Below are positions 1-39,473 of a stretch of DNA of 64,000 nucleotides, in pieces; the first letter of the stretch is position 1, and each line of letters begins with the position of its first letter. The translations under genes were made by a program, and so were the position numbers. The stretch comes from Acidimicrobiia bacterium. Its GTDB lineage: Bacteria; Actinomycetota; Acidimicrobiia; Spongiisociales; ZC4RG35. The notes beneath the pieces were generated by a model. It saw nothing but the letters and a program-made list of their open reading frames with translations. It did not search any database and was not told the origin of the DNA. The stretch is from the NCBI GenBank assembly GCA_965215185.1, contig OZ244034.1, positions 2,656,001 through 2,720,000 of the forward strand, given 5' to 3'.

Positions 1-884
1 ATCACGCCTGGTGGTATGGATATCGTGGCGGGATTTCTCACTTCGCCCTCTCGGCGATCGACCTGGCCCTGTGGGACCTGAAGGGAAAGGACCTGGGCCA
101 GTCGGTTCTCAGGATGCTGGGCGGCGCCGCCCGAGAGTCGCTGCCGGCCATTGCCAGCACCCACGCCTTTCTAACCATGGACGAGGAGATCGATAAACAC
201 GGCCGGTGGGTGCAGGAAGACGGTTACCGGGGGGTGAAGATCGGATTGGGCAAGGCGGGGATAACCCGCCTGGGTTTCGATGCCAAACGGGACATCGAAT
301 TCATGCGCCGGCTCCGGGAGGCGGTGGGTCCCGATGCCTGGATCATGCTGGACCGCGGTGTCAAGTGCACCTGGGACCTGGAACACGCCATCCGACTGAT
401 CCGCAAATTCGAGGAGTACGGGTTGCGGTGGATGGAGGAGCCGTTCGAGCCCCGTGAGTTCATCAACTACAAGAAACTCCGAGGCGCCGTGAACACCATG
501 CTGGCGTGGGGAGAGCGGGAGTGGGACGAATACGGCTACCGCGAGGTGATCGGCACCGGCACCGCCGACGTGGTGGGAGTCGACCCCGGTCGCGTCGGGG
601 GGATCACCGGCGCCCTGCGGATCATTCGCCTGGTGGAAGACGCAGGAGTGTGGTTCAACGCCCATGCGTGGAGCGGCGCACCGGTGACCGCCGCCAGCCT
701 GGCGCTGTCGTTTACCACGAACCGATGCCTGCTGTTCGAGTTCAAGCCCATCGAGAATCCGATGCAGCATGAACTGGTCACCAACCCCTTCGTCCATGAT
801 CGGGGCACCGTCGGCATCCCCCCGGAGCGACCCGGTCTGGGCATCGACGTGCAGGAGAGCGTCCTCCAGAAGTACAAGTTGTGA
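1..884 (+). CDS. Mandelate racemase/muconate lactonizing (enolase superfamily) enzyme, 5' end outside window
   Basis: Frame open from position 3 (..ALSAIDLALWDLKGK..); metal ligands MLD, WMEEP, WGE; VDPGRVGG/HAW His-Asp dyad; PERPGLGID C-terminus. Confidence 0.9.
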   Translation, partial: HAWWYGYRGGISHFALSAIDLALWDLKGKDLGQSVLRMLGGAARESLPAIASTHAFLTMDEEIDKHGRWVQEDGYRGVKIGLGKAGITRLGFDAKRDIEFMRRLREAVGPDAWIMLDRGVKCTWDLEHAIRLIRKFEEYGLRWMEEPFEPREFINYKKLRGAVNTMLAWGEREWDEYGYREVIGTGTADVVGVDPGRVGGITGALRIIRLVEDAGVWFNAHAWSGAPVTAASLALSFTTNRCLLFEFKPIENPMQHELVTNPFVHDRGTVGIPPERPGLGIDVQESVLQKYKL

Positions 885-932
885 TCATCGATCGCTCCGG
901 TAGTCTCTCCGTGACAGGGAAACCCCTGTCCT

Positions 933-1790
933 TTAACGGTCGGTGCGGTAGGGGTTGAGGAGGTCGGTGAGGGTGTCGCCCAGGAGGGTGAAGACCAGCA
1001 CCGTTATGAATATGGCGCTTCCCGCTCCCAACGCCAGGTAGGGATTGGTGGAGACCAGGGTCTTTCCGGTGAGGAGCATGGCGCCCCAGGACGGGGCGGG
1101 AGGCTGAGCGCCCAGACCCAGGAAACTGAGGGCGGCCTCGGTTAGCACCGCGGTGGCGAAGGTGAGGGTGAACTGCACCATGAGGATCGAGGTGAGGTTG
1201 GGCAGGAGCGACCGCTGCATCAGATAAACGTGACTGGCGCCCAATGCTCGGCCGGCTGTGATGAATTCACTCTCTTTGAGGGAGAGGGCCATTCCTCGCA
1301 CGAGACGGGCGAAGCGGGGGATCTGCACTATCCCGATGGCGATGATGGTATTCCGCAGGTTGGTTCCCAACACCGCCACCATGGCCATGGCCAGGATGAT
1401 GGGAGGGAAAGCCAGCAGGCCGTCGGTGGTGCGCATCATTATGGTGTCGGTGAGCTTGCCGAAGTACCCGCTGACAACGCCCATCGGCACCCCGAATACC
1501 ACCGCGATGGCGGTGGAGGCAAAGCCCACGTACAGTGAGACGCGTGATCCGTGGATGATCCGGCTGAAGATGTCCCTTCCTATCTCGTCGGTGCCCAGCC
1601 AGAACTGTGCGGTAGGCAACTCGAAGGGATAGGCGACCACTTCGGTGGCGCCGTAAGGCGCCAGGAGGTCGGCAAACACCGCCATCAGCACCAGCAGCGC
1701 CACCATGCTGAGCGTGAAGAGGTGAAGGGGATTGCGGGTTATCCTCCTCCAGATCTTGCGTCTCTCCGAGAACATTGCGGCAGAGGTCAT
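933..1790 (-). CDS. Peptide/nickel ABC transporter permease (OppC/DppC-like)
   Basis: WLGTDEIGRDIFSR, EFITAGRALGAS EAA loop, LSFLGLG..PSWG. Confidence 0.92.
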   Translation of the reverse strand: MTSAAMFSERRKIWRRITRNPLHLFTLSMVALLVLMAVFADLLAPYGATEVVAYPFELPTAQFWLGTDEIGRDIFSRIIHGSRVSLYVGFASTAIAVVFGVPMGVVSGYFGKLTDTIMMRTTDGLLAFPPIILAMAMVAVLGTNLRNTIIAIGIVQIPRFARLVRGMALSLKESEFITAGRALGASHVYLMQRSLLPNLTSILMVQFTLTFATAVLTEAALSFLGLGAQPPAPSWGAMLLTGKTLVSTNPYLALGAGSAIFITVLVFTLLGDTLTDLLNPYRTDR

Positions 1791-1812
1791 ATCCGGGTTG
1801 GTCCTTGTGCGC

Positions 1813-2756
<944 letters not shown>

Positions 2757-2760
<4 letters not shown>

Positions 2761-3767
2761 GATCGAGCGCCGGAGTGGTTTTCGGCGCCCGGGTAATGGC
2801 AGGCCACCAAGCTGTCGGCGACAAGCGCCAATGGGGGGTCCTGTTCGACGCAGAGTTGGTCGCCTCGCCAGCACCGGGTTCTGAACCGGCAGCCGGAGGG
2901 CGGATCGAGGGGATTGGGCAGGTCGCCAGCGAGAATTATCCGCTCCTGGGTCTGTCGACCCTGGGCGGCGGAGATGTCGGGGATCGCCGACAGGAGGGCG
3001 ATCGTGTAGGGATGCTGGGGGGAGTTGAAAACCGCGTCCCGGGTGCCTTCTTCCACGATGCGGCCGAGGTACATGACCGCCACGCGATCGGAGACCTGGC
3101 CCACCACGGAGAGATCGTGGGCGATGAACAGATACGCCAGGCCGAGTTCGGTTTGCAGGTCTTCCAGCAAGTTGAGAATCTGGGCCTGGATGGAGACGTC
3201 CAGCGCCGACACCGGTTCGTCCAGCACCAGAAGAGAGGGCTCCAGAGCCAGGGCTCGGGCGATGGCGATCCGCTGTCGCTGCCCGCCGGAGAACTCGTGG
3301 GGGAACCGGCGCAGGGAGTCGGGTGGCAACTGAACCAGGGAGAGCAGTTCCGGGATCTTTTGCCGGGCCACCGCCCGGGAGATGCCATGGATGCGGAAGG
3401 GCTCGTACAGGATCTGCCGGACTCTGAACCGGGGATTGAGGGAGGCGTAGGGATCCTGGAAGACGATCTGCATCTCCTGGCGCAACGGACGCATCTGTTG
3501 GTGGTTGTAGTGGGTGATGTCCTGTCCCGCAAAGTTGACCGTTCCCGCCGCGGGTTCCAGCAGTCGGATGATGGTCCTCCCCAGGGTGGACTTGCCGCAT
3601 CCCGACTCTCCCACCAGCCCCAGAGTCTCACCGGGCTTGATGGACAGGGTGACGTCCTCCACCGCCACCAGGGTGGTGGCCTTCTGGGCGCCGCTGCGGC
3701 GGATGTGGTAACTGGTGGTGATGTCCCGGATATCGAGAATCGGTCTCTGGGCGGTGTCGGTGTTCAT
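2757..3767 (-). CDS. Oligopeptide ABC transporter ATP-binding protein (OppF-like)
   Basis: GESGCGKST, FSGGQRQR, DEPVSALD, HPYT, PPSGCRFRTRC tail; start MNTDTAQ. Confidence 0.92.
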
Positions 3768-4774
3768 GTTGCTCTCTCGGTGAGCCAGGATGCCGCTTCC
3801 TCGGTGAAGTGACAGGCTGCCTGCTGGTCGGTCCCCACCTCCATCAGCCGCGGGGAGTCGGATCGGCAGGCCGAACGCTGCGCTCCGATGGCGCACCGGG
3901 GATGGAAGGGGCACCCCGGGGGGACGTTGGCCATGTCGGGAGGCTGGCCGGGAATGGAGTAGAGTTTCGTCCTCCTTTGCGTGATCGAAGGAATGGAAGC
4001 CAACAGTCCGATCGTGTACGGGTGCCGTGGCCGGGAGAAGATGTCGCCGATGCGCCCTTCCTCCACGATCCGACCGGCGTACATCACTATCACCCGGTCG
4101 GCGATCTGGGAGACCAGTCCCAGGTCGTGGGTGATCAGGATGGAAGCCGCCCCCGTCTCCTCGCGGGCCGCCTTGAGAGTCTCGATCACCTGCGCCTGGA
4201 TGGTCACGTCCAAGGCCGTGGTGGGCTCGTCGGCGATCAGCAGCTTGGGCCGGTTGGCCATGGCCATGGCGATCATGGCGCGCTGGCGCATTCCGCCCGA
4301 ATACTCGTGGGGAAACTGGTTGTAGCGTCGTTCCGGTTGCGGGATCCCCACCATGTCCAGCAATTCGATGCCACGCCGTCTGTGGTTTGACTTCGATTCG
4401 GAAGGATTGTGGGTCCACAGAGCTTCCCGCAGTTGTTCCCCCACCTTGATAACCGGGTTCAGCGAGGTCATGGGATCCTGGAACACCATGGAGATCTCCT
4501 GTCCCCGGATCGAGCGGAGCGCTTCCGTGGACAGGGGCAGCAAGTCCTGCCCTTCGAAGAGAGCCCTTCCACCGGTTATCTCCCCGGGGGGTTTGGGGAT
4601 GAGCCCCAGGATGCTCAGCACCGTCACCGTCTTGCCGGATCCGGACTCGCCGACTATTCCGAGGGTCTCCCCGGTGTTGAGGGAGAAACTCACGCCATTG
4701 ACGGCATTGATCACCTGATCAGGGGTCTTGAACCGGACCGAAAGGTTTTCGACGGTTAGCAACGGAATTGGCAT
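3764..4774 (-). CDS. Oligopeptide ABC transporter ATP-binding protein (OppD-like)
   Basis: GESGSGKT, YSGGMRQR, DEPTTALD, GCPFHPRC. Confidence 0.92.
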   Translation of the reverse strand: MPIPLLTVENLSVRFKTPDQVINAVNGVSFSLNTGETLGIVGESGSGKTVTVLSILGLIPKPPGEITGGRALFEGQDLLPLSTEALRSIRGQEISMVFQDPMTSLNPVIKVGEQLREALWTHNPSESKSNHRRRGIELLDMVGIPQPERRYNQFPHEYSGGMRQRAMIAMAMANRPKLLIADEPTTALDVTIQAQVIETLKAAREETGAASILITHDLGLVSQIADRVIVMYAGRIVEEGRIGDIFSRPRHPYTIGLLASIPSITQRRTKLYSIPGQPPDMANVPPGCPFHPRCAIGAQRSACRSDSPRLMEVGTDQQAACHFTEEAASWLTERAT

Positions 4775-4817
4775 CGAGATAGAAGATACCTTGCTGGGGG
4801 AGGTTTGGGCGGGAGGA

Positions 4818-4857
4818 GAGGAGGGGCGGGGACGCCGAAGCGCCCCCGCCCCTCCTC
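4818..4857 (-). terminator. GC-rich stem-loop after the binding-protein gene (terminator or mRNA-stabilising hairpin)
   Basis: GAGGAGGGGCGGGGACGC-CGAA-GCGCCCCCGCCCCTCCTC near-perfect 18-bp stem. Confidence 0.75.
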
Positions 4858-4875
4858 AGTTTGCGTTAGCGGAAC

Positions 4876-6753
4876 CTAGTTGTCTGTCAGGTAGACGTCG
4901 GTGAGGTACAGGGTTCCTTGAGTATGCGAGATGAAGCCGTGGACGTTGGGACTGTGGGGTATGGGGTTCAATCGCCCTCCGAGGACGATCTGGGGTTGTT
5001 CCTCCATGGCCCACGCCTGCAACTGGTGGATGGCTTCCTTGTACTCGATGTTGGAGGAGATGGATCGGGCACTGGACAGCAGTTCGAAGAACTCGGGCTT
5101 GTGGTCGATCCATCCCATGGTCTCAACGAAGAGTTTGTTGTAGGGATGATTCAGCAAGTCGTACTCGTCCGGCTTGGGCACCATTGCGCACGCGGCCAGG
5201 TCGTACAGGCCAAGCTGGTCAGGGTCATTCGTATGCGTGGGGAGCGTTCTGTCAATATAGGTCGCCACGTCCATGATGTTCAGCTCGATCTGGATGTTCA
5301 AGCCGGTTCTCAGTTGCTCCTGAACGGCCTGGGCCAGCCAGGTGTGCTCGGGGTCAGTATCGCAAACTATCATCTCCCCGCCGTCGAAGCCGTCGGCGTA
5401 CCCCGCACTCTCGAGAACGGCCTTCGCTCCGGCGACGTCAGGAGCGTTGTATGAGGCCGCGTCCGGGTTGAAGAACTGCGCGTTGTTCTCCATGGGGTTG
5501 GAAAGAATCTGCATGTGGCCCAGCAGGGTTCGTTGCAGCGCAGGGCGATCAATCGCCATGCTGGTGGCCTGGCGCACCAACGGATTCGACCAGATGTCCC
5601 TGCGGGTGTTGACGTGGAAGTGATACAGGCCGGTGTTCCCTGATGGAGGACTGGCGATTACGATGCCCGCTTCGCTGAGGGTTGCCAACTCGGCCAACGG
5701 ACCCTGGGCCAGCATGTGGACCTCGCCGGTTCGCATCTGAAGCGACATGACGCTGGTATCAGGAACGGTAACGTACTCGATCCTGTCCAGGTAAGCGTCG
5801 CCCCAGTAGTCGGGGTTGCGCTCTATGACAACCCGTTGGTTTCTCTCCCAGGACACGAACCTGTACGGGCCGGTGCCGGTAGGCGTCTGGTTCAAGTCGA
5901 TGTCCTCGGCAGGCGATATATACACGTCGATCAGCGTGCTGTGCAATATGCGATCCGGCTCTGAGAGTCGAACCTCCACGGTGAGGTCGTCAATCGCTAC
6001 GACTTCTGCGACTCGAGTCAGCAAGGAAGCTGTCCTTCCGGACCCGGGCTCCTGCGCGCGTTCGATTGAGCGAACAACGTCAACGGCGTCCAGATCCGAG
6101 CCGTCGTGAAAAACCACGTCCGGACGAATGCTGAAGACATGCGACAGTCCGTCTTCTGAGACATTCCAATGAGTGGCCAGCAAAGGCCTGATCTCGTAGG
6201 TGTTCAGGTTGAACTCAACCAGGGTTTCATACATGTTGGTGACGACGTTGCGGCCAGCTGTGGATCCGTACCGGTTGGGATGCAATTGGTGTGGATCGGC
6301 CGTTTGGGCGATGATGAGCGTCCCACCACGGGGAATCGTCGCCGCCATGGCGGCCTCTTCCAACTCCATCTCGGCCATGGCGGCTGCCGCCTCGGCTTCG
6401 GCTACCATCGCTTCGGCTTCGGCTGCCATTGCTTCGGCTTCGGCTGCCTTCGCTTCGGCCTCAGCCAATGCTTCCATGGCTGCTTCGTCTCCTTCTTCGG
6501 CGGCCATCTTGGTGTCTTCCAGTTCCGCCATGGCCTCATCCAGGGCAGCTTGTGCTGCGGCAGCGGACGCGGACGCGGACGCGGCTTCGGCTGAGGCGGC
6601 TTCGGCTGCTGCTTCGGCTTCGGCTGCCTGCGCTTCGGCGGCAGCGCGGGCTGCGGCTGCAGCTGCGGTTGCGGCCTCAGCTTCCGAAGTGTCCTCTCCA
6701 CAGGCCGTTGCAACCAAGGCCAGAATGGCCAGCAGTGTGAGAAGTTTCTTCAT
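4876..6753 (-). CDS. ABC transporter substrate-binding lipoprotein (family 5) with long Ala/Glu-rich N-terminal linker
   Basis: MKKLLTLLAILALVATA-C lipobox, AAGGAG RBS, RGGTL..FHDGS..GTGPY..RNPDYWG family-5 motifs. Confidence 0.92.
   Translation of the reverse strand: MKKLLTLLAILALVATACGEDTSEAEAATAAAAAARAAAEAQAAEAEAAAEAASAEAASASASAAAAQAALDEAMAELEDTKMAAEEGDEAAMEALAEAEAKAAEAEAMAAEAEAMVAEAEAAAAMAEMELEEAAMAATIPRGGTLIIAQTADPHQLHPNRYGSTAGRNVVTNMYETLVEFNLNTYEIRPLLATHWNVSEDGLSHVFSIRPDVVFHDGSDLDAVDVVRSIERAQEPGSGRTASLLTRVAEVVAIDDLTVEVRLSEPDRILHSTLIDVYISPAEDIDLNQTPTGTGPYRFVSWERNQRVVIERNPDYWGDAYLDRIEYVTVPDTSVMSLQMRTGEVHMLAQGPLAELATLSEAGIVIASPPSGNTGLYHFHVNTRRDIWSNPLVRQATSMAIDRPALQRTLLGHMQILSNPMENNAQFFNPDAASYNAPDVAGAKAVLESAGYADGFDGGEMIVCDTDPEHTWLAQAVQEQLRTGLNIQIELNIMDVATYIDRTLPTHTNDPDQLGLYDLAACAMVPKPDEYDLLNHPYNKLFVETMGWIDHKPEFFELLSSARSISSNIEYKEAIHQLQAWAMEEQPQIVLGGRLNPIPHSPNVHGFISHTQGTLYLTDVYLTDN
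6344..6680 (-). repeat. Low-complexity Ala/Glu repeat (AEAEAMA-like units) in the binding protein
   Basis: Repeated GCTTCGGCTTCGGCT on + strand; translates as AEAEAKA AEAEAMA AEAEAMV AEAEAAA. Confidence 0.8.
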
Positions 6754-6830
6754 CTTGATCGCTCCTTTGTTGTCAGAGGTGTCCAATGATAAGATCTTTG
6801 AGAGTCAGAATACCCAATATGTAGGTGATG

Positions 6831-6887
6831 TTTCCAGAAAAATGGAAAATAGATTACGAAAGTGGCATTTCCCCAGAAAAAGGGAGA
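6831..6887. promoter_or_regulatory. Candidate operator pair in divergent promoter region
   Basis: Perfect palindrome TTTCCA-GAAAAA-TGGAAA (6831-6848) and degenerate copy TCCCCA-GAAAAA-GGGAGA (6870-6887) in AT-rich intergenic DNA. Confidence 0.6.
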
Positions 6888-6921
6888 TCCGCCAAGGATG
6901 CATACCATGGGAGGGCAAGAG

Positions 6922-7260
6922 ATGTCCGACTTTCTGAAACGTCCCAGACTTCCTGCCGGCATCGATGGTTCCCGCCGCGATCTGTGGGAGGAATTCCGGC
7001 GACAGCCGTTTGGCAAGCACTCTCCTGATCTGCAGGCGCTGCTGGAATACATGCGGGGTGGTCCCATCAGCGGCAAGTACTTCCTGAAGCTGACCGGCCC
7101 TCATTCGGAGTGGACGCTGGCTCGGTTTAGCACCACGTACCCATTGACCACCGAGACTCTGCCCGAGCATGTCTTCACCACCATCGAAGACGCCGAATAC
7201 TTCGTGTTCCGCCGCCGCTGGGAGGAGATGTTCGCCGCCGACCCTGGAGCGGAGTCGTGA
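6922..7260 (+). CDS. N,N-dimethylformamidase small-subunit-like protein
   Basis: EF..PFGKHSPDLQALL..MR and F.TIEDAEYFVFRRRW motifs; GTGA overlap with large subunit. Confidence 0.8.
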   Translation: MSDFLKRPRLPAGIDGSRRDLWEEFRRQPFGKHSPDLQALLEYMRGGPISGKYFLKLTGPHSEWTLARFSTTYPLTTETLPEHVFTTIEDAEYFVFRRRWEEMFAADPGAES

Positions 7261-9491
7261 GCGTCAAGGCCGCGGTCATGGGATATGCGGACCGCCAGAG
7301 CGTGCGGCCGGGAGAGCGCATCGAGTTCAAGGTGAGCGCGCTGGGTCCGGAGACCTACCGGGCGGACATTGTGCGGTTGATCGCGCCGGAAGTGGGTCTG
7401 GGAGACGACTGTCCGGACTTCTGCGAGATCGAACTCGATACCGAGGTCTGCGGTGACTATCCCACGGAGTGGCAGCCCATTCATCCCGGTTCGGCGGTGC
7501 GGGTGCCGCTGCCGGGGGGTCTTCCCCTGGATAAGGGAGTAACCCTCAGCGCCAACATCTTTCCCACCTTGGCCGATGCGGGTCGGCAGGGCATCCTGGG
7601 CACCCACAGTCCCACCGACGATTCGGGCCTCAGCCTGATCCTGGAGGACGGGGCTCTCGCTCTGGCGGTGGGAAGTGGGGGGTCCACGGCCATCGTGACC
7701 AGTTCGATTACCCCGGTGGAGCACCGTTGGACGGCGGTGGCCGTCACCTATGAGCCTGGCGTCGGCACTGTGGAGTTTCATGCTCGGGGACTGGAGGGCC
7801 ATCGCCTGGAAGGTGCGCTGTCATCGCGGGAGAGACATGAAGGAGCGGCGCACGGAGCATCGGGAGGAAGCCACTTTTACATAGGTGCCGCTCGAGCCGT
7901 GGGTGACCGCAGGGTGGAGCACACCACACTCTGTTTCAACGGCCGGATCGAACGGCCCCGGGTCTACGCCCGGCTGCTTGATCATGAAGACATCTCCCGT
8001 CTGTCGGAGGTGGCCGGTCCGGGCGTGGTGGAGGATGCCTATGGAGATTGGGATCTCTCGATCGGAATCGACACCGACTCGGTCACCGACGTGTCTGGCA
8101 ACGGCCACCACGGGGAAACGGTCAACCTGCCCGCCCGCGGTGTAGGTGGCTCCAACTGGGCGGGGGAGACCGACAACTGGCAGCAGAAGACCGAACAGTA
8201 CGGCGCCATCCACTTCCACGACGACGACGTCGATGACGCCCGGTGGCGGACCACCTTCACGCTGGTGGTACCCGAGGACTGGAAGAGCGGATGCTATGCG
8301 GCTCGCCTGCGGGCCGACGACGCCGAGTTCTACGTTCCGTTCGTGGTGCGGCCCGCGCCGGGCAAGGAATCGGATGTGGTGTTGCTGCTGGCCACCGCTA
8401 CCTACGGGGCCTATGCCAACCTGCGGCTGCGGGTCGTCTTCCCATGGAACGAGTTGATCCACGGTCGCTTGACGGTGCTGGACGACACGGATCTGCTGAT
8501 GCTCCGGTTTCCCGAGATCGGCTCCTCCACCTACGACAGCCACACCGACGGGAGCACCGTTGTCTATGCTTCGATGCGGCGACCGGTCACCAATTTCCGC
8601 CCCAAGGGCCGCATCTACAAGTTCTGCCAGGACATGCTGCTGGTCTCCTGGCTCGAGGAGGATGGTGTCGACTACGACGTGATCACCGACGAGGACGTGC
8701 ACCGGGAGGGCCAGTCTGCTCTGACGCCTTATCGGGTGGTCATCTCCAGTTCCCATCCCGAATACATCAGCACCCAGATGTTCGACGCCACCGAAGACCA
8801 TGTCAGGCAGGGAGGGCGGCTTATGTACCTGGGAGGCAACGGCTGGTACTGGCGGATCGCCTATCACCCCACCCGGTCGGGGATTGTCGAGGTTCGTCGA
8901 CCCGATGCTCCCCGGCTGTGGGCGGCTGATGTCAGCCAGGGGCATCTCTCCTTTTCGGGGGAGCGCGCCGGTACCTGGTCGTGGGCGGGACGGCCCCCCA
9001 ACACCTTTCTGGGGGTGTGCTTCATCACTCAGGGCTTTGACGAGTGCTCCTACTACCGTCGCACTCCCGCTTCTCACGATGAGCGGGCTTCTTTCATCTT
9101 CGAAGGTGTTGAGGATGAGATCATCGGCGATTTCGGCCTGTTGCAGGGTGGGGCAGCCGGATACGAGATCGACCGGGCCGACGCTGCGTTGGGCACTCCC
9201 CGGCATGCGCTGGTGTTGGCGTCCTCGGAGGGACACTCCAACCTCTACGACCTGATGGTGACCTCGCTGGTCGACATCCTGCCGCCCAGCAATCCGGACG
9301 ATCCGGACCGGATTCGAGCAGACATGGTGTTCTACGAGTCGCCGGGGGGCGGAGCGGTCTTTTCGGTGGGGTCCATCGCTTGGTCCGGCAGTCTCAGCCA
9401 CGCCCGCTACGGCAACAATGTGGCGGCGGTGAGTCGCAACGTCCTGAACCGGTTCCGGGATCCAGAACCCTTCCGGATGCCCGCCCAGTGA
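7257..9491 (+). CDS. N,N-dimethylformamidase large-subunit family amidohydrolase
   Basis: GYADRQSVRPGE, LamG-like N-region, QYGAIHFHDDD, TYGAYAN, STYDSH.DG, SHPEY, YLGGNG, GAAGYEID, GGAVFSVGSIAW. Confidence 0.9.
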   Translation: MSVKAAVMGYADRQSVRPGERIEFKVSALGPETYRADIVRLIAPEVGLGDDCPDFCEIELDTEVCGDYPTEWQPIHPGSAVRVPLPGGLPLDKGVTLSANIFPTLADAGRQGILGTHSPTDDSGLSLILEDGALALAVGSGGSTAIVTSSITPVEHRWTAVAVTYEPGVGTVEFHARGLEGHRLEGALSSRERHEGAAHGASGGSHFYIGAARAVGDRRVEHTTLCFNGRIERPRVYARLLDHEDISRLSEVAGPGVVEDAYGDWDLSIGIDTDSVTDVSGNGHHGETVNLPARGVGGSNWAGETDNWQQKTEQYGAIHFHDDDVDDARWRTTFTLVVPEDWKSGCYAARLRADDAEFYVPFVVRPAPGKESDVVLLLATATYGAYANLRLRVVFPWNELIHGRLTVLDDTDLLMLRFPEIGSSTYDSHTDGSTVVYASMRRPVTNFRPKGRIYKFCQDMLLVSWLEEDGVDYDVITDEDVHREGQSALTPYRVVISSSHPEYISTQMFDATEDHVRQGGRLMYLGGNGWYWRIAYHPTRSGIVEVRRPDAPRLWAADVSQGHLSFSGERAGTWSWAGRPPNTFLGVCFITQGFDECSYYRRTPASHDERASFIFEGVEDEIIGDFGLLQGGAAGYEIDRADAALGTPRHALVLASSEGHSNLYDLMVTSLVDILPPSNPDDPDRIRADMVFYESPGGGAVFSVGSIAWSGSLSHARYGNNVAAVSRNVLNRFRDPEPFRMPAQ

Positions 9492-10270
9492 CCTCCATCA
9501 AACCGACGGATTGGAGCTTGGGCGCCGGCCTGCGGGATCGGGTGGTGTTGGTGACCGGGGCGGCAAGTGGCATCGGCCGGGCGACCGCCCGGACCATGGC
9601 GGCGCTCGGGGCCCGGGTGGCGGCTTTGGATCGGCAGGAAGCGGTGCGGGACGTGGTGTCGGAACTGGACAACCCCGGCCAACACCTGCCGGTGGTTTTT
9701 GATCTGTCCGATATCGGGTCGTTGTCTTCAATGGTGGCCGATGTGGAGGCGCGCTTGGGCCCTTTGTGGGCGCTTTCTCATGTGGCGGCCTATCTGCGCC
9801 GGAAAGAGTTGAAGGATGTGACTGAGGAGGACTGGGATGCTCAGCTGGACGTGAATTTGAAAGCTTCCTTCTTTCTCAACAAGGCGGTGGGCGAGGCAAT
9901 GATCGCCACCGCCAGGGGGGGCCGGATCATTAACTTCACTTCCGGGGCCTGGCTGACCGGACCGGTGCATGGGAGTCATGCGTATGTGGCCAGCAAGGGG
10001 GGCGTCGTCTCCATGACCCGTGGTTTCGCTCGAGCCTATGGGCCGTACAACATCTTGGTGAACTGCGTCTCGCCCGGTCAGATCGATACTCCCATGCAGC
10101 ATGTGGACAACCCACCGGAGATAGTGGCCGCTGGAACCGCGGCGTGTCCTTTGGGACGGATGGGACGCCCCGGAGAGCTAGCGGCAGTGGTGGCTTTCCT
10201 GGCTTCCGAACATGCCAGTTTCGTGAGCGGCGCTACCATCAATGTCAGCGGCGCGCTGGTCATGTATTAG
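9488..10270 (+). CDS. SDR family oxidoreductase, probably NAD-dependent
   Basis: TGAASGIG, Asp after beta2 (ALDRQ), YVASK, VSPGQIDT; GTGA overlap with upstream gene. Confidence 0.9.
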   Translation: MTSIKPTDWSLGAGLRDRVVLVTGAASGIGRATARTMAALGARVAALDRQEAVRDVVSELDNPGQHLPVVFDLSDIGSLSSMVADVEARLGPLWALSHVAAYLRRKELKDVTEEDWDAQLDVNLKASFFLNKAVGEAMIATARGGRIINFTSGAWLTGPVHGSHAYVASKGGVVSMTRGFARAYGPYNILVNCVSPGQIDTPMQHVDNPPEIVAAGTAACPLGRMGRPGELAAVVAFLASEHASFVSGATINVSGALVMY

Positions 10271-10286
10271 CCGAGTTGGATCGTTT

Positions 10287-11198
10287 GTGAACACCATCCA
10301 GACCGTTTCGGGAGAGATTTCTGTAGACGAGTTGGGTCTGACTTTGCCCCATGAGCATGTGTTCTTGGATGTCTACGAGATCACTATGAACTCGCATCTC
10401 ATCCTGAGTGATCCGCAGGTGGCACGATACGAGTTGGGGGTTTTCAAGGAAGCCGGGGGGTGCACCATTGTCGACCAAACGGTGCACGGACTCAATCCCG
10501 ATCCGGTGGCGCTTCGGCAACTGGCCGAGGATGTGGGGATCAACATTATTGCCGGGACCGGGTTTTACTGGGAGAAGTTCCATCCTCCCTGGCTGAAGGA
10601 CATGAGCGATCGCGATATCGTGGCCATGCTGGTGAAAGACCTGACGGTGGGTTTCTATGGAACCGACATCAAGGCGGGGATCATGGGCGAGATCGGAACT
10701 CATCATCGGAGAATCTCTGCTGCCGAAGAGCGGGTGATCAGGGCTTGTGCCACAGCTCAGCGGGAGACCGGAGTTCCCATCTCCACCCATGCCCTGTTCA
10801 CCCGCATAGGTCTGGAGCAGGTGAGGCTTTTCGAAGACGCCGGGGCCAATCTCGACAAATTGGTGATTGGCCACGTCGACACGACCCCGGATGTGGACTA
10901 CCATCTGGAGTTGCTTCGGAGAGGAGTTTGGATCGCCTACGACGCCATTGGACAGCTCGACAAGCAGTCTGACGAGAGACGAGCAGACGCCATCGCCCGA
11001 CTCATCCGGGCCGGTTATCGTGACCGGATTCTGCTCTCCACCGATATCGGAAAGCGGGGCGCCTTAAGGTCATATGGAGGAACGGGGTATGACCATGTGA
11101 TCACCCGTTTTGTGCCTCTGTTGCGGGGCAACGGCATCAGCGAGGAAGACATAGAGGCGCTTACGGTCGCCAATCCTCGACGTCTCTTCACCCGATGA
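10287..11198 (+). CDS. Phosphotriesterase-homology (PHP/PTE-like) metallohydrolase
   Basis: LGLTLPHEH, GEIG (Glu bridge), STHA, GHVD, LLSTD, ANPRRLF. Confidence 0.9.
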   Translation: MNTIQTVSGEISVDELGLTLPHEHVFLDVYEITMNSHLILSDPQVARYELGVFKEAGGCTIVDQTVHGLNPDPVALRQLAEDVGINIIAGTGFYWEKFHPPWLKDMSDRDIVAMLVKDLTVGFYGTDIKAGIMGEIGTHHRRISAAEERVIRACATAQRETGVPISTHALFTRIGLEQVRLFEDAGANLDKLVIGHVDTTPDVDYHLELLRRGVWIAYDAIGQLDKQSDERRADAIARLIRAGYRDRILLSTDIGKRGALRSYGGTGYDHVITRFVPLLRGNGISEEDIEALTVANPRRLFTR

Positions 11199-11251
11199 TG
11201 TACAGCAAGGAGCAACTTCCCACCGTCTTTGGCGGTAGGGAGTAACCGACC

Positions 11252-12316
11252 ATGAGCAAGGTTGGGCGCACCAGTTCTGTGTCAGTGGTCCTTTTTGGCC
11301 TGGGCACCGTTGGTCGGGCGACTCTCCGGCTGTGTCTGACCCGTCCGTGGCTTCGTCCGGTGGGGGCGGTGATCGGTTCCACGTCGCTGAAGGAACGAAT
11401 CGCCTCCGGGGAGATTCCCGCCGATCTTCAACTCTCCCACGATCCCGATCATCTGTTGGATCAACTCCGTCCGGAGGTGGCCCTGATAGCCACCCGGTCT
11501 CCGATCGCCGAAGTCAAAGACGACATCCTTAGGTGTGTGCGCAGGGGAGTGAATGTGGTCACCTCCAGTGAGGAACTGGCCTACCCGGCGGCCACCGATC
11601 CCGCGGCGGCCGAGGAGATCGCAGCCGCCTGCCGCCGCTTTGGGGTGGCGGTGGTGGCCACCGGAGTCAATCCGGGCTTCGTATTCGATGTACTGCCGGT
11701 GGTGATCTCCGGCGCCTGCTGGGATATCGACCGGATTTCGGTCACCCGGGCGCTGGACGCTTCGGTCTTCGGGCAGCGGGTACACCGTTCGCTGGGGGTG
11801 GGATACAGTCCGTCGGAATTCGAGCAGGCCCGCGGGGAGGGCATCATCCGCGGGCACATCGGCTTTGAGGAAAGCGCCCGGGTCATCGCCGAGGTGCTGG
11901 GGAGGACACTGGACCGTTTTGAGGAGAGCGTTGAGCCCCTGATCGCAGACCAACCTTATCAACTGGCCGAGTATGTCATTCCCCCAGGTCTAACGGCCGG
12001 GGTTGTCCAAGAGGCGACCGGCTGGGTTGACGGTCAACCGTGGCTTCGGTTCGACTTATCTCTGCATGTGGATCCGGGCTCGGTTGGCATGGAGACCAGT
12101 GATCGTGTCCTCATCGAGGGAGAGAACACCATCGACGTCACGATCCGGCCCGGCACCCAGTCGGTATTGACCACCTCTGCCCGTCTTGTCAACAGTATCC
12201 ATTCGGTCCTATCCGCCCCACCGGGGTTATACACCGCGGCCGATTTGCTGCCCGCCGCTCCCTGGCTGCGAAAAACTCCTCCTCAGGGCATTCGCAGGCG
12301 CGTCGCCCAGGCTTGA
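11252..12316 (+). CDS. NAD(P)-dependent amine dehydrogenase, 2,4-diaminopentanoate dehydrogenase (Ord)-like
   Basis: GLGTVG Rossmann, NVVTSSEELAYP, ATGVNPGFVFD, GHIGFEES, VNSI..V..APPGL. Confidence 0.8.
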   Translation: MSKVGRTSSVSVVLFGLGTVGRATLRLCLTRPWLRPVGAVIGSTSLKERIASGEIPADLQLSHDPDHLLDQLRPEVALIATRSPIAEVKDDILRCVRRGVNVVTSSEELAYPAATDPAAAEEIAAACRRFGVAVVATGVNPGFVFDVLPVVISGACWDIDRISVTRALDASVFGQRVHRSLGVGYSPSEFEQARGEGIIRGHIGFEESARVIAEVLGRTLDRFEESVEPLIADQPYQLAEYVIPPGLTAGVVQEATGWVDGQPWLRFDLSLHVDPGSVGMETSDRVLIEGENTIDVTIRPGTQSVLTTSARLVNSIHSVLSAPPGLYTAADLLPAAPWLRKTPPQGIRRRVAQA

Positions 12317-12375
12317 GCGACCAGGCTGGTTCGTTCTCGCGCTGTTGTGCCAACACCTGCTTTCGGTATGGTCAC

Positions 12376-12609
12376 GGGGGTTGTGAAAAAGACCGCTGAT
12401 GGGGAGTTGATTCTGTCCCACCGAGAGTCCATATTGAAAAAGCCAAACACCGAGAGACGGTCCGTTCCGGCGTCGTGCGGACCGCGTTAAGGGATTACAC
12501 CGGTTAATGCAACAAGCCCTGTTTCGAGGGGGCGGAGCTTGTTCGACCCATGGCAAGGTGGCGGCGGGGGAGGGCCCGAAAGGGACAGGAAATGTCGCGA
12601 CAATTCCTG
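12376..12609 (+). mobile_element. Candidate non-autonomous ~235-bp element (MITE-like), copy A
   Basis: Colinear similarity to 22174-22411; left end GGTTGTGAAAA is the reverse complement of copy B's right end. Confidence 0.45.
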
Positions 12610-12703: not shown

Positions 12704-13096
12704 CTAGTTGCAGACGGCGGTGGCTTCGATCTCGATCAGGTATCCGGGGTCCAGGAAGGCTGACACCTCAACCATGGTGGAGGCGGGCTTTATGTCCCCG
12801 AACATCTCGGCGTGGGCTCTTCCGGCCTCTTCCCATCGAGAAATGTCGGTGAGAAACAACCGGGTGCGGACCACATTGGCAGGCGTGGCTCCCAACTTGG
12901 CCAATGCCCTGACGATGATCTGCAGACAGGCTTTGGTCTGTCCGTACATATCATCGGGGGCGATCACCGATCCGTCCGGCGCCCCGGCGGTGGTTCCGGC
13001 CACCTCGATCAGGTTGCCCACCCGGACCGCCCGAGAGTAACCCACCGGGTCCCACGGGCGGTTGGATGGTACCTGCTGTCTTTGGCCACTCGACAT
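12704..13096 (-). CDS. RidA/YjgF family protein
   Basis: WDPVGYSRAVRVG, VVRTRLF, PASTMVEV, LIEIEATA. Confidence 0.88.
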   Translation of the reverse strand: MSSGQRQQVPSNRPWDPVGYSRAVRVGNLIEVAGTTAGAPDGSVIAPDDMYGQTKACLQIIVRALAKLGATPANVVRTRLFLTDISRWEEAGRAHAEMFGDIKPASTMVEVSAFLDPGYLIEIEATAVCN

Positions 13097-35453: not shown

Positions 35454-35762
35454 GCAACCAGGACACGTTTCGGCCCAGAAGACTGGGCCAAGCACTGGTA
35501 GCCGGCTGTTCGCCCTGGTCAGAGCCATGTTTCCGAGCAAGGAAGCCACAGCCGACCTGACCGTTTTGCTACGGGGCTATCCAGTATTCGGGGTTCATCT
35601 TGCCAAGCCAAACACTTGCAGGGTCTTTGGGATCGGAAATGCTTTGTTTTCGAATCGCGGCGGTGTAGTTTTCGGTAGAGAAGCGGGCGGATCTGGCGGC
35701 GCTTGCGTTGGAGGTTCAACGCCCAAGAAATGAATAACATCCTTGTTTCAAAGGACCCTGCA

Positions 35763-38700
35763 ATGAGCGCGGGGTCTGGGAGAGGCCGCCACCGTGTGGC
35801 GGTTATTGCTTTCGCTATGGTGGTCTCGGCTATTGGTATCACCCTGAGCAGTGGTGGTGTAGCACTCGCCACTCCAAGTGTGGACTCGGTGACCGTTGTC
35901 CGGGAGAATCCGACAACGGCTGAAATTTCGGTAGCGATAGCTAACCCCGGTACGGAAGAGAACACTATCTATCTTCGGTACCGCGTCAAGTCGGACGACC
36001 AAAACAACCAGAACCCGTGGGTTCCAATCCAGATTGATGCCACCGGGTCTACGGCGGACCTCAAACTGACGGGGTTGACGGAAGGTACTACGTATGAAGC
36101 GCAGGCGTCTGTGGACAGTTCCAACTGGTCATCGCCCGAAAAAGAGTTCACTACCGTATCGCCCGAGATCAGCATAAAGCGACTAGCTGGCTCCTTCGTA
36201 GATGACACCTATGCCGGGTTTAGCTTCATTACGGTTGAGTGGAATTCGCCCTTAGCGGCCTCGAACAACAACGATGAGATAGCTAAGAACCTTTATGTGC
36301 GTTATTACGACGAACCAGCCTCATATTCAGACGATTGGGATTCCATCCCGGTAATCAGCAATAGTAAAGCCAAACCAGGTTTCAGACTGACCGGTTTGCA
36401 GCCGGACACGGGCTACCATGTTGAAGCTTCGCTTGATAGCGATTTCAATGACAAACACACCGTAACCATAGGGTTTAGAACCCGCGGTAGAGCGCATGTG
36501 TCCGATTTGGATGCCAGGGATATCACGAGAACCTCGGCAGAGGTTGACGTGGGTTTTACCAGTCTCCCATCCGGTATCAACCCGACGGTGTACTGGCGTT
36601 ACCGAGTAGTGGGAACGGATTGGCCTGTTCTCCCGGAAACAACCACGATGGACCGCAACGGCGACACCATCAGTCTGACCGGCCTGACTCCGAACACCAA
36701 ATATGAAGTCCAAGCTTCTTTGGAATACAACTTCAGTATTGCCGCCTCGGATATGTTTGTCACTACCTCACCTGGTGTGGATGCCATTGATGTGGTGGAC
36801 ATAAAACAAGTCAGCGCCAATGTCATTGTCACCATTGAAGACCCAAATGCGGAATATCAAGAGGTATATATCCGCTATGTCAGTTACCTAGAGTTGGGTC
36901 CGCAAAGGACTTATGGCAATTGGAGCGCGGCTACAAACGTTTCCATCACTACCGACCCTGACTCCCAAGCCAGGACCGCCTCGCTCCTGTTAGAAGAGCT
37001 TTCCTCTGATACGAAATATGTAGTGCAGGCTTCGCTTGTTCAACTGGACTCCTCGGAAGAGGGCACCAGTCCTGCGACGGACCCCCAGACAACCGGTAAA
37101 GAAACAGATCCCCAGGACGCCAACACTGTTATCAAGGATATCGAGATTTTCGAGACTCTGCGGCCCCAAGTCGTCGAACCTCTGGTCGTGAGCGATGTGG
37201 GGCAGACGGAAGCCACCGTCACCGCCACCATTGACCACCCGAATGGGCGCCCGCAGGCAGTGAATATGCGGTGGCGGTCTTTCGAGTTAGTGAATGGTGT
37301 CAGGAATTACGACAATTGGGTTTCGAAGCAAGCACCAAGCACCACCACAAATGCCGCTGAACTTACATTGACAGGCCTGCAGACCGGGACAGATTACCAG
37401 GTGCAAGCCTGGCTGGATGCCAGTCGTAAAGATACTGAAAGGCCGGTCAAGGACTTTAAAACCACTGATGTCACTGTCTCCGAAGTGAAGGTTGTTCCGG
37501 GTTCGGTGTCTGACATCGGCGCTCAATTGGAGATCGTGATCGTGCCGCATGGTGGCACCGCCTTGACGGCGCACCTGCAATACCAGGTTGACGGCACAAC
37601 CACATGGACGTCTGGTCAATGTGATACCACCAGCGCCGACCCGGACAGTTGTACGGTCACCCTAGAGAATCTCGCTGCGAGTACGGATTACAACGTGGAG
37701 GCGTCCTTGGATTCGACCTTCCCAGAAGATCCTCCCCAACCCGCCATACCGAAGACCAGGAGGACCCAGTTCACCACATTGTCGGGGGATCCGAGTGTCA
37801 CCGATCTGATTATTGCAAACGTCGAGCAGACCGAGGCCGACGTGACGGTCACGTTCGACAACCCTGATTCGACTGCGAAGGACGTTTATCTGCAATATCG
37901 GACGGCCGTCGAAAATGAGCCGGTTGGGAATTGGGAAAAGAAGGACAAACCCAGCACTCCCAGTGGAACAAGTGTGGATTTTGCCTTGGAGGGTCTCTAC
38001 TCTGGGACGACGTACGAAGTATGGGGTTCCCTTGACGGCGAATTCAACGAGTACAGAGCTAAGACCTTCGACACAGATCCTCCCAGCATTAAGGGAGTGA
38101 CCATCGTAAACAAATCGTCGAACGAAGCTACGGTGAGGGTGTTTATCCAGGAGCCGAATGGGCGGGATCAAACGATCTACTTGCAATACCGCACCTATGC
38201 AGATCAAGACCCGTGGCCAGATCCAGAGGACAGCAACACATTCTCTAGCACTGTAGACACTGCGGAATACATCATGCATGAACTCGACAAGGACACAGCA
38301 TATGAGGTGCGGTTGTCGTTGTACGGCGACTACCCCGATGATGGAAGAACCTGGACGGTAATTTTCACCACGACGGCAATAGTGCTCAGGGTAGACGACA
38401 TCACTCAGCACACCGCCTTGGTAAAGACCGAACTTACCGACCCGTCAACGGCGGACGACACAGTGTTTTTGCGCTACCGCACGGCGGATCCCTCCAATCC
38501 GGACTCTTGGATTGATGACTACGCGTTGGGTCCTGATTCCAACAGTCAGCCACAGAATCTGGGGACCACAAAGAGTGAGCAAGGAGGTTTAGGGACACCG
38601 AAGGGTTCGGAAGAAGATGACGGAGATATGGTTCGACAGGTTCTGCTAGAAGGTCTGGACGCCGGCACCACTTATGAAGTGGAGGCCTCTTTTGAGGACT

Positions 38701-39473
38701 TCGACTCAGCGAAGCGAGTTATCTTTCTGGATACATTCATCACCTTGCCTGCTACCCAGACTTCCAATCCGGGTGGAAGTGGCGGAGGTGGAGGTGGCTC
38801 TGGTGGCGGAGGTGGAGGAGGCTCTGGTGGCGGAGGTGGAGGAGGCTCTGGTGGCGGAGGTGGAGGAGGCTCTGGTGGCGGAGGTGGAGGTGGAAGGCCG
38901 CCTTTGCAGGTGGAGTACACCGATGTCCCGGATGGTCACACCCATAAGGAGGCGATCGATGCGATGGCCGCCGAAGGGATATTCGTGGGCACCGAGTGCA
39001 GGCCGGGGGAGTTCTGTCCGGAAAAGCCCATCCCCCGGTGGGTAATGGCGGTGTGGCTGGTGCGACTGGTCGATGGTAAGGAGCCTGAGCCCGAGACTGA
39101 GAGCAGCTTCGTCGATGTGAATCCAGGAAAGTGGTGGGCTGCTCATGTGGAGCGGCTGTGGGATCTTCGTATAACAATTGGTTGCTGGGACGAACCCGGT
39201 GACTTCAGATACTGTCCCGAGGCTTCCACCACCCGTGCCCAGATGGCCAGTTTCCTGGTGCGAATGTACAAGTTTGCCCCCGCCGTGTCGGCTGGGTTTG
39301 TGGACACGGATCACACCAGTCACCGCTTCGACATCGATGCCCTATACGCGGTGGGAGTGACCAAGGGTTGCTTTGTCAATCCACTTCGGTACTGCCCCGA
39401 CGAACCCACATCCCGGGGAGAAATGGCTTCCTTTCTTTACCGTACCCGCCAACACTTGGGGACCACTTCCTGA
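35763..39473 (+). CDS. Secreted surface protein with ~9 fibronectin type III-like domains and three C-terminal SLH-like repeats
   Basis: Signal peptide ending VALA; nine L..L...T.Y.V.ASLD-type motifs; Gly linker; PRWVMAVWL, TRAQMASFL, SRGEMASFL. Confidence 0.88.
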   Translation: MSAGSGRGRHRVAVIAFAMVVSAIGITLSSGGVALATPSVDSVTVVRENPTTAEISVAIANPGTEENTIYLRYRVKSDDQNNQNPWVPIQIDATGSTADLKLTGLTEGTTYEAQASVDSSNWSSPEKEFTTVSPEISIKRLAGSFVDDTYAGFSFITVEWNSPLAASNNNDEIAKNLYVRYYDEPASYSDDWDSIPVISNSKAKPGFRLTGLQPDTGYHVEASLDSDFNDKHTVTIGFRTRGRAHVSDLDARDITRTSAEVDVGFTSLPSGINPTVYWRYRVVGTDWPVLPETTTMDRNGDTISLTGLTPNTKYEVQASLEYNFSIAASDMFVTTSPGVDAIDVVDIKQVSANVIVTIEDPNAEYQEVYIRYVSYLELGPQRTYGNWSAATNVSITTDPDSQARTASLLLEELSSDTKYVVQASLVQLDSSEEGTSPATDPQTTGKETDPQDANTVIKDIEIFETLRPQVVEPLVVSDVGQTEATVTATIDHPNGRPQAVNMRWRSFELVNGVRNYDNWVSKQAPSTTTNAAELTLTGLQTGTDYQVQAWLDASRKDTERPVKDFKTTDVTVSEVKVVPGSVSDIGAQLEIVIVPHGGTALTAHLQYQVDGTTTWTSGQCDTTSADPDSCTVTLENLAASTDYNVEASLDSTFPEDPPQPAIPKTRRTQFTTLSGDPSVTDLIIANVEQTEADVTVTFDNPDSTAKDVYLQYRTAVENEPVGNWEKKDKPSTPSGTSVDFALEGLYSGTTYEVWGSLDGEFNEYRAKTFDTDPPSIKGVTIVNKSSNEATVRVFIQEPNGRDQTIYLQYRTYADQDPWPDPEDSNTFSSTVDTAEYIMHELDKDTAYEVRLSLYGDYPDDGRTWTVIFTTTAIVLRVDDITQHTALVKTELTDPSTADDTVFLRYRTADPSNPDSWIDDYALGPDSNSQPQNLGTTKSEQGGLGTPKGSEEDDGDMVRQVLLEGLDAGTTYEVEASFEDFDSAKRVIFLDTFITLPATQTSNPGGSGGGGGGSGGGGGGGSGGGGGGGSGGGGGGGSGGGGGGGRPPLQVEYTDVPDGHTHKEAIDAMAAEGIFVGTECRPGEFCPEKPIPRWVMAVWLVRLVDGKEPEPETESSFVDVNPGKWWAAHVERLWDLRITIGCWDEPGDFRYCPEASTTRAQMASFLVRMYKFAPAVSAGFVDTDHTSHRFDIDALYAVGVTKGCFVNPLRYCPDEPTSRGEMASFLYRTRQHLGTTS
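38796..38891 (+). repeat. 24-bp tandem repeat x4 encoding GSGGGGGG linker
   Basis: (GGCTCTGGTGGCGGAGGTGGAGGA)x4, last copy differs at one base. Confidence 0.92.

Follow-up and report, generated by a model that had tools for sequence, protein, structure and literature searches.

A DMFase-family amidase clade in a catabolic gene cluster of an Acidimicrobiia bacterium and its possible link to N-acyl amino sugar acids

The window analysed here is a stretch of 64,000 nucleotides (positions 2656001-2720000) of the one-contig 3.12-Mb genome of an Acidimicrobiia bacterium. Its left end carries a catabolic gene cluster around a two-subunit enzyme related to dimethylformamidase (DMFase), the enzyme of dimethylformamide (DMF) degradation, together with genes for an enolase-superfamily enzyme, an Opp-type importer, a short-chain dehydrogenase/reductase (SDR), a PHP-like hydrolase of the phosphotriesterase (PTE) type and an Ord-like amine dehydrogenase (Table 1). 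Coordinates are relative to the window, with 1 its first letter and negative values upstream of it; the left edge of the cluster as tabulated is simply where the window begins, and the cluster itself reaches further. Genomes compared are labelled G, the source genome being G000, and fetched loci L. Open reading frame (ORF), profile and genus-alignment checks recovered in place all genes listed in an initial annotation of this DNA. The overlaps of the DMFase-like subunit genes and the SDR gene that it described were found as GTGA at 7257-7260 (small/large) and 9488-9491 (large/SDR). Inspection by eye of 13 aligned genus copies of the divergent intergenic region (6754..6921) revealed neither a LacI-type operator nor a conserved palindrome.

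Table 1. Genes and features of the cluster at the left end of the window
Feature	Coordinates	Strand	Profile or basis
Enolase-superfamily enzyme, mandelate-racemase subgroup, YPEPND subfamily	-240..884 (1..884 in window)	+	PF13378/PF02746
OppC-type permease	933..1790	-	PF00528, PF12911
OppB-type permease	1813..2760	-	frame 1813..3600, ATG at 2760, orthologue in L037
OppF-type ATPase	2757..3767	-	PF00005, PF08352
OppD-type ATPase	3764..4774	-	PF00005, PF08352
Family-5 solute-binding lipoprotein, Ala/Glu-rich linker	4876..6753	-	PF00496
Divergent intergenic region, 168 bp	6754..6921		
DMFase-type small subunit, 112 aa, start MSDF	6922..7260	+	6LVB_B, E 2.6e-4; start by genus alignment
DMFase-family large subunit, 744 aa, GR[IM]YKFCQD clade	7257..9491	+	PF20254; predicted Tyr/Tyr/Glu iron amidase
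Classical SDR (TGxxxGIG, D48, S152, Y166-K170)	9488..10270	+	PF13561
PHP/PTER-type binuclear amidohydrolase, predicted lactonase or N-deacylase	10287..11198	+	PF02126
Native amine dehydrogenase, Ord/AmDH4-like	11252..12316	+	PF19328
Rid-family protein, convergent	12704..13096	-	PF01042

The large subunit scores 315.5 bits against PF20254 (DMFA2_C; cut-off 27), the sole match to this profile in G000. It aligns over its full length with Paracoccus DMFase (6LVB_A, E 8.9e-134) and also with N-acetyl-(R)-beta-phenylalanine acylase (8HUY, E 1.6e-115), an enzyme named in the titles of PDB entries 8HUY, 8I59 and 8I5A. An AlphaFold2 model (predicted local distance difference test score, pLDDT, 86) shows the Ig-like, pentraxin and catalytic three-domain fold of the DMFase family, and Foldseek comparison gave template modelling (TM) scores of 0.91 to 6LVB (34% identity) and 0.82 to 8HUY (33% identity). 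The motifs TYGAYAN (382), STYDSH (424), SHPEY (499), GGNG (526) and GYEID (635) align with S395/Y399, Y440, H519/E521, N547 and E657 of DMFase, respectively. In DMFase, Y399, Y440 and E521 are iron ligands, H519 is essential and N547 is an active-site residue (PMC7686228); E657 is not among the residues named in that account. The large subunit keeps the ligand equivalents Y386/Y426/E502 together with H500 and N528, in agreement with the Tyr/Tyr/Glu ligand motifs recognized earlier. With DmfA1/DmfA2 of Paracoccus sp. DMF (6LVB) it shares the small and large subunits, the fold and the three iron ligands plus H519 and N547; it differs in its separate clade, in four substitutions and in its neighbours, which are sugar-acid and amine enzymes instead of C1/methylamine enzymes. 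Fold and ligand motifs are also shared with the acylase, which has a larger N-acyl amino acid substrate, whereas the loops after Y386 and at 451-459 differ. In 44 of the best 120 homologues, the small and large subunits form a single fused protein.

The pocket sets this enzyme apart from DMFase proper (EC 3.5.1.56). F693 of DMFase forms a constriction that excludes larger amides (PMC7686228), a description repeated in 10.1101/2019.12.17.879908. The residue that aligns with it is D673, in place of the aromatic constriction; further substitutions are F611 to Q592, E474 to K455 and M405 to R392. The motif GR[IMVL]YK[FL]CQD, found in 73 of the best 120 amidase homologues listed, marks a group in which, beyond the motif itself, R392 is invariant (73/73 rows, versus 47/106 outside) and D673 nearly so (69/73), the residue outside being mostly V, A or I. 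R392 and D673 suggest, from the alignment, a pocket that is wider and more polar than that of DMFase. A quick tree was built from 93 catalytic domains of the fetched loci; it omits L003-L017 as duplicates and contains neither Paracoccus DMFase nor the acylase. In it, the group forms a clade of 30 rows (SH-aLRT 100, stem 0.59). Five of 401 genomes of the class carry the clade motif (four of the genus, and G263 of a second genus), as do 18 metagenome contigs. The 73 clade proteins include one from a cultured Dactylosporangium (P0083). A full clade amidase is encoded in 13 of the 17 genus genomes, with a partial copy in G009 and a fragment in G013. The plasmid collection held 74 records with DMFase-family genes, all below 60% identity.

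Other branches of the family are also represented in these data. A second, distant paralogue (34-36%, motif GTPRHFSTD) is present in nine of the 17 genus genomes (G002, G012, G013, G011, G004, G001, G003, G009 and G015; loci L019, L020, L022 and L023) and absent from G000. Clades from Binatia (SSLWQFNAD), Rokubacteria (GRLWNLFLD) and Alphaproteobacteria (TNAREFILD) have pocket motifs of their own (L042-L098) and show none of the present gene neighbourhood; each likely represents a different natural amidase.

Outside the genus, the enolase is a recurring partner of the clade amidase. After removal of the (near-)duplicates L101, L103, L108, L111, L114, L115 and L116, 14 clade loci outside the genus could be compared with a control set of 58 other DMFase-family loci (L041-L098), 26 of them from Binatia. 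Neighbours were counted within the fetched flanks, at identities of at least 40% for the enolase and at least 50% for the SDR; several accessory queries were derived from clade loci, and only the window-derived queries are free of circularity. An enolase lies beside the amidase in seven of the 14 clade loci and in none of the 58 controls. The other counts, clade versus control, are 2 versus 0 for the SDR, 3 versus 0 for the Ord-like gene, 1 versus 0 for the PTE gene, 4 versus 0 for LacI regulators and 2 versus 9 for CoA-transferase III. Four loci (L040, L100, L102 and L109) group together in both the amidase tree and the enolase tree. TRAP importers occur in L040 and L102, which, like the LacI regulators, fits a sugar acid. 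A second hydrolase of a different kind is found elsewhere: M81 (L040, L100, L102), ceramidase-like (L110), fuconolactonase-like (L106) or SMP-30 (L039). In L039, a class III transaminase gene lies directly 5' of the amidase.

Closer to the window, the gene set is more complete. Among 14 close loci (82-96% identity; two contigs end early), the small subunit, SDR and binding protein genes are present in all, and within the fetched flanks the Ord-like gene in 12, the PTE gene in 11 and the enolase in 9. Of 111 genomes in this bacterial family, seven have the enolase, namely G263 and six from the genus. One 76-kb contig of G263 carries the amidase, enolase, Opp, SDR, PTE and Ord-like genes, with identities to the window genes of 61% for the binding protein, 68% for the SDR and 75% for the PTE. 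The same contig encodes two YPEPND enolases and another enolase, two Ord-like enzymes, E1 alpha/beta, Gfo, TIM-barrel and rhamnose mutarotase proteins, a P450 and several hydrolases and transaminases. SDR orthologues at 60-68% are found in L107, L113 and G263, and the Ord-like gene in 16 of the 17 genus genomes. Genus genome G011 (95% complete) has no match for the clade amidase, Ord, PTE, binding protein or enolase. The test proposed in the initial annotation, recurrence of the gene set in other genomes, was therefore passed in part. The whole set recurs in G263 and the enolase recurs as a partner across phyla, whereas PTE and Ord are mostly confined to Acidimicrobiia-type loci. The Rid-family gene adjoins the cluster across the genus and in G263 (53% identity), and its connection is uncertain. 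In L028 (12120-19454), the amidase 3' end, SDR, PTE and Ord genes are tandemly duplicated across an IS-like gene.

The enolase places the amidase in a sugar-acid setting. With residues numbered from -243 and positions assigned from known motifs, it has Mg ligands D199/E227/E253 and a His-Asp dyad (H303/D276), as expected for the mandelate-racemase (MR) subgroup, and strand 2 carries K161-x-G in place of K-x-K. Its top PDB matches are 3SJN, 5OLC, 4GGB, 3SQS and 3STP, and the nearest structures include sugar-acid dehydratases and cycloisomerases. It scores below all NCBIfam cut-offs (best acid-sugar dehydratase score 124 versus 750, for the part inside the window) and is predicted to be an acid-sugar dehydratase or lyase. 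MR-subgroup dehydratases act in the non-phosphorylative acid-sugar pathways for L-rhamnonate, L-lyxonate and galactarolactone, which include a diketo-hydrolase route. Like these pathways, the loci combine an SDR or Gfo, a hydrolase, an enolase-family dehydratase, rhamnose mutarotase and 2-hydroxyacid dehydrogenase; unlike them, the window cluster adds an N-deacylase and an amine dehydrogenase and has no FAH hydrolase.

The enolase also belongs to a rare-sugar route that is independent of the amidase. It has 2,629 homologues at E<=1e-60 and occurs in 11 of 44 genomes of the order of L040; the amidase was absent from nine further enolase regions that were fetched. The six long ones carry sugar ABC genes with Gfo and a TIM barrel and mostly FadR, rhamnose mutarotase and SDR, and some add acetoacetate-decarboxylase-like or 2-hydroxyacid dehydrogenase genes. 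The same module is found at two of three plasmid matches. In the amidase-free module loci (L118, L119, L130-L134 and L136), the importer is a CUT2 ABC system, accompanied by Gfo/Idh/MocA and a xylose-isomerase-like barrel. Three of five enolase-module genomes (G495, G500 and G521) have no PF20254 match. The amidase looks like an entry step for an N-acylated form. The genomes with the amidase-free module are of Alphaproteobacteria type and include the cultured strains Shinella sp. PSBB067 and Chelativorans sp. AA-79.

The remaining enzymes provide hints about the order of steps. By alignment to 6G1M, the Ord-like dehydrogenase has E107, R166 (P9), L168, F173 (P12) and H202 (P15), where the P numbers were assigned here from residue spacing relative to CfusAmDH in the supplement to PMC11164908. 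It retains E102, R161, F168 and H197 of AmDH4 and has the P3, P9 and P15 residues of the carboxylate-binding groups G1/G2. In AmDH4, E102 has been confirmed and the enzyme acts on 4-oxo acids (PMC9325545). Arg at P9 and His at P15 have been tied to a terminal carboxylate with a distal amine, and native amine dehydrogenases favour ammonia over amines (PMC11164908). From its residues, the Ord-like enzyme probably requires an acid substrate, so deamination is more likely after acid formation than at the early stage at which it was first placed. The likeness to Ord/AmDH4 (6G1M, 7XDU) extends to the catalytic Glu, P9 Arg, P12 Phe and P15 His; apart from two substitutions discussed below, the window cluster differs in having no ornithine-fermentation genes, and the enzyme scores 238.7 bits against the 2,4-diaminopentanoate dehydrogenase model NF040740 (cut-off 400).

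The PHP-like hydrolase has predicted metal ligands H22, H24, E135, H168, H196 and D253, a Glu-bridged site of the PHP/PTER type. Its top structure matches are 4LEF, 1BF6 and 9EFA (phosphotriesterase-related protein, PTER), with E. coli PHP the nearest, then 9EFA. It shares the binuclear site with Glu in the bridging position with E. coli PHP (YhfV) and with PTER, an N-acetyltaurine hydrolase, and differs from them in its score (206 bits against NF007373, cut-off 486), the absence of a PTER-type insertion and its operon. Because PTER hydrolyses N-acetyltaurine and N-acetyl-beta-alanine (PMC11374699, PMC13311154, PMC12873775), the lactone hydrolysis originally assigned to this gene is only one option, and by analogy the enzyme may be a second deacylase or amidase. 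Curated models and structures gave only generic matches for the SDR and hence no substrate by homology. All NCBIfam Opp/Dpp/Nik models score far below cut-off for the binding protein. Its matches to AgaA and to structures of sialic-acid type rank below those to peptide and haem binders. In the binding proteins of the genus (window 4876-6753; L121, L001), the lipobox is followed by long repeat linkers that vary in length and are rich in Ala/Glu or Thr/Pro.

Combining these data, we see about an even chance that the cluster serves the catabolism of an N-formyl or N-acetyl amino-deoxy sugar acid, with the two-subunit predicted iron amidase removing the acyl group. The support comes from genes, fold, ligands, clade and co-occurrence, from which we infer every step of the pathway. 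In this proposal, the Opp system would take up an N-acyl amino sugar or the corresponding acid. Oxidation of C1 to a lactone would fall to the SDR or to an upstream Gfo/Idh/MocA enzyme, and the PHP-like or another hydrolase could either open this lactone or take off a second acyl group. The DMFase-like enzyme would strip the N-acyl group, the enolase would dehydrate C2/C3 to a 2-keto-3-deoxy acid and the Ord-like dehydrogenase would oxidize a distal, gamma-type amine to a ketone. A thiamine diphosphate (ThDP)-dependent E1 alpha/beta pair encoded 48 kb upstream might then cleave the keto product. Formate, if released, would pass to formyltetrahydrofolate synthetase (FTHFS) or formate dehydrogenase; the sequence does not discriminate between a formyl and an acetyl group. 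The original view that this is not a DMF operon and that a larger, polar natural amide is handled in a sugar-acid setting is supported.

Perosamine- and viosamine-type 4-acylamido-4,6-dideoxyhexoses occur in bacterial surface glycans. A sugar of this class agrees with the gamma-amine specificity, with Phe at P12 and with the mutarotase, and it is the best single candidate class, although a rather unlikely one when taken alone. A more specific version, in which the GR[IM]YKFCQD clade is a dedicated deformylase of N-formylated 4-amino-4,6-dideoxy surface-glycan sugars and, jointly with the Ord-like dehydrogenase, channels them into an uncharacterized deoxy-sugar-acid route based on the YPEPND enolase, is speculative and quite unlikely. 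If true, it would be the first catabolic pathway for such sugars, would give a natural function to a branch of the DMFase family and a role to an orphan type of amine dehydrogenase, and would give these Acidimicrobiia a means of living on digested bacterial cell surfaces.

A number of observations weigh against the N-acyl amino sugar acid reading. Four of the seven enolase-positive loci come from one subclade and 26 of the 58 controls from Binatia, so the counts are not independent. The enolase is missing from the other seven clade loci, three of which are contigs shorter than 7 kb; there is none within 20 kb in L107 or within 14 kb in L112, and the genome of L039 has no orthologue (best 35%). 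The third plasmid match, L120 (40%), sits among CoA and shikimate-dehydrogenase genes rather than sugar genes. The Ord-like gene stands beside the amidase in only three of the 14 loci outside the genus, at 31-35% identity, and the available DNA of the four alphaproteobacterial-type loci contains no deaminating enzyme. In the Ord-like enzyme itself, Leu replaces N163 and H264 of AmDH4. In G013 and G016, PTE and Ord remain although the amidase and the binding protein are absent, the G263 contig carries many unrelated catabolic genes, and G000 has 9 PTE, 30 SDR and 16 family-5 binding-protein matches. The binding protein lacks a close characterized relative (20 PDB matches at E<=1e-20, none near). 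No FAH-family diketo hydrolase is found in the G000 cluster or on the G263 contig; a diketo-hydrolase ending was rejected, as G000 and G263 each have four FAH matches, none within the cluster. Finally, loops 403-406, 552-557 and 630-634 of the large subunit are modelled at pLDDT <50, which leaves F693 as the only documented pocket position.

Other explanations share much of this evidence. The substrate could be an N-acyl-beta-amino acid (a 3-acylamido-3-deoxy aldonate, or a non-sugar compound such as N-acetyl-beta-alanine or N-acetyltaurine) that the amidase and the PHP-like enzyme deacylate, with the enolase eliminating ammonia at the beta carbon. We regard this as unlikely. In its favour, N-acetyl-(R)-beta-phenylalanine acylase is the one further family member with a solved structure, both N-acetyltaurine and N-acetyl-beta-alanine are substrates of PTER (PMC11374699, PMC13311154), and L040, L100, L102 and L109 combine enolase and amidase with no deaminase seen in the available DNA. 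Q592 matches the acylase rather than F611 of DMFase, yet it is general in the family (93/106 non-clade rows) and so gives no specific link to the acylase. The window PTE is closer to E. coli PHP than to PTER, this reading gives the Ord-like enzyme nothing to do, and in the amidase-free genomes G495, G500 and G521 the enolase functions in modules. It is also conceivable, if improbable, that the region is a mosaic of scavenging operons at one hot spot, in which amidase, enolase, PTE and Ord act on separate compounds. The many paralogues, a 6.4-kb enolase-Opp block duplicated at 79%, an IS110 element and integrase upstream, the mixture of hydrolases and transaminases on the G263 contig and the partial retention in G013 and G016 would all fit. 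Against such a mosaic stand the translational coupling of the small, large and SDR genes, the adjacency of the enolase in two phyla with matching subtrees and none of 58 controls, and the joint loss in G011.

Two further alternatives are very unlikely. In one, the Ord-like enzyme and SDR oxidize a polyhydroxy cyclic amine (an imino sugar) to a sugar lactam, the DMFase-like enzyme opens its ring and the enolase dehydrates the resulting amino acid. All five enzymes, the sugar-type enolase among them, would again have a part; to our knowledge, no DMFase-family member is a lactamase. A tertiary or cyclic amide would suit a family able to cleave DMF (PMC7686228), but R166 and H202 make the Ord-like site look carboxylate-dependent, and ammonia is preferred to amines by native amine dehydrogenases (PMC11164908). 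The other, equally doubtful, is a small-amide formamidase like DMFase that mops up formamide, N-methylformamide or DMF from a neighbouring pathway. DMFase is the best structural match (TM 0.91) and is most efficient on N-methylformamide (PMC7686228, Table 1), and the genome has FTHFS and formate dehydrogenase. Against it stand the 34% identity and separate clade, Asp at the F693, Gln at the F611 and Lys at the E474 positions, and the lack of a gmaS match above cut-off; moreover, a small neutral amide needs no Opp importer.

The cluster itself contains no formate or dimethylamine enzyme, as first reported. Elsewhere in the genome, however, FTHFS lies beside a formate dehydrogenase alpha gene (G000:C1:2124349-2131293, 2.124-2.131 Mb), which has one in-frame TGA, probably encoding selenocysteine. 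The absence from the cluster is therefore weak evidence. A DMF/methylamine pathway was rejected with the gmaS model below cut-off; dimethylamine dehydrogenase or monooxygenase was not searched for. An N-formylmaleamate or pyridine ring-cleavage pathway, suggested by maleate-isomerase-like and fumarase genes in G263, L112 and L100, was also rejected, as no ring-cleaving oxygenase recurs.

Each enzyme of the cluster is a member of a known family, and a non-DMF member of the DMFase family, the solved acylase (8HUY), is already known. What the clade adds is an altered pocket and a recurring partner, which open its natural role to tests on just six proteins, five soluble enzymes or subunits and the binding protein. 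Neither this clade nor the enolase module nor N-formyl amino sugar catabolism turned up in a search of the open-access literature. DMF has existed only since 1893 (PMC7686228), and a survey of 20,762 complete genomes, 924 of which had DMFase genes, reads the carriers as putative DMF degraders (10.1101/2021.03.18.435917). Our data caution against annotating these genes as DMF degradation. They also offer a context for those Ord-like amine dehydrogenases to which PMC11164908 could assign no substrate from genomic context, and expose a widespread uncharacterized sugar module through the enolase homologues.

In G000, the cluster continues for ~55 kb upstream of the window. This region encodes an amidohydrolase (-53.5 kb), a second SDR that is 51-53% identical to the one in the window, a ceramidase-like hydrolase, E1 beta/alpha, Gfo/Idh/MocA, a sugar ABC system of the CUT1 type and an aldo-keto reductase (AKR). 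Also present are a TIM-barrel enzyme, an AraA-like isomerase, a second enolase (87%) accompanied by another Opp set, a ferredoxin and P450, and two 2-hydroxyacid dehydrogenases. The Gfo, TIM barrel, AraA-like isomerase, AKR, E1 alpha/beta, ceramidase-like and second SDR genes lie 33-54 kb upstream, and several genes of these types directly flank the amidase in L024, L031, L033, L105, L107 and L110. The duplicated enolase-Opp block (6.4 kb, 79% identity) spans -33.5 to -27 kb (L002:5267-12820) and -620..6753. In front of the window copy stands a 75-codon remnant of the AraA-like gene, the upstream binding-protein gene appears broken, and G004 shows the same duplication. Just 5' of the enolase, at -4442..-823 (L001:15558-19177), are a phage-type integrase and an IS110 transposase, as well as two gene fragments, one from a third binding-protein paralogue (61%) and the other helicase/restriction-like. 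The GC content of the cluster is 0.621, compared with 0.607 for the genome (standard deviation 0.016 for 12-kb windows). A genomic island origin, as in the "catabolic island" of the initial annotation, was rejected on this ordinary GC and the genus-wide presence (amidase 13/17, Ord 16/17). Together with the mobile genes, these data describe a genus-wide catabolic region that bears traces of mobile elements, and they do not establish an island.

Two studies supplied four RNA libraries with contigs that match the cluster; one run with matching contigs is labelled sponge metagenome. The contigs cover nearly all of the binding-protein gene and parts of the enolase, small subunit, large subunit and PTE genes, and reach the Ord-like gene in one run; stretches not covered (11676-12609 in all four, and 6775-6942) were not used as evidence. 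As the libraries are represented as contigs, transcription and strand are not demonstrated by them. In the upstream CUT1 sugar operon, two related proteins (26%; L121:17209-17985 and L002:1170-2066) have no Pfam match and are conserved at 83-88% in G004 and G006. Further into the window, the stretch of lowest GC (0.53-0.55) contains a 1,256-aa secreted-looking ORF at 35703-39473.

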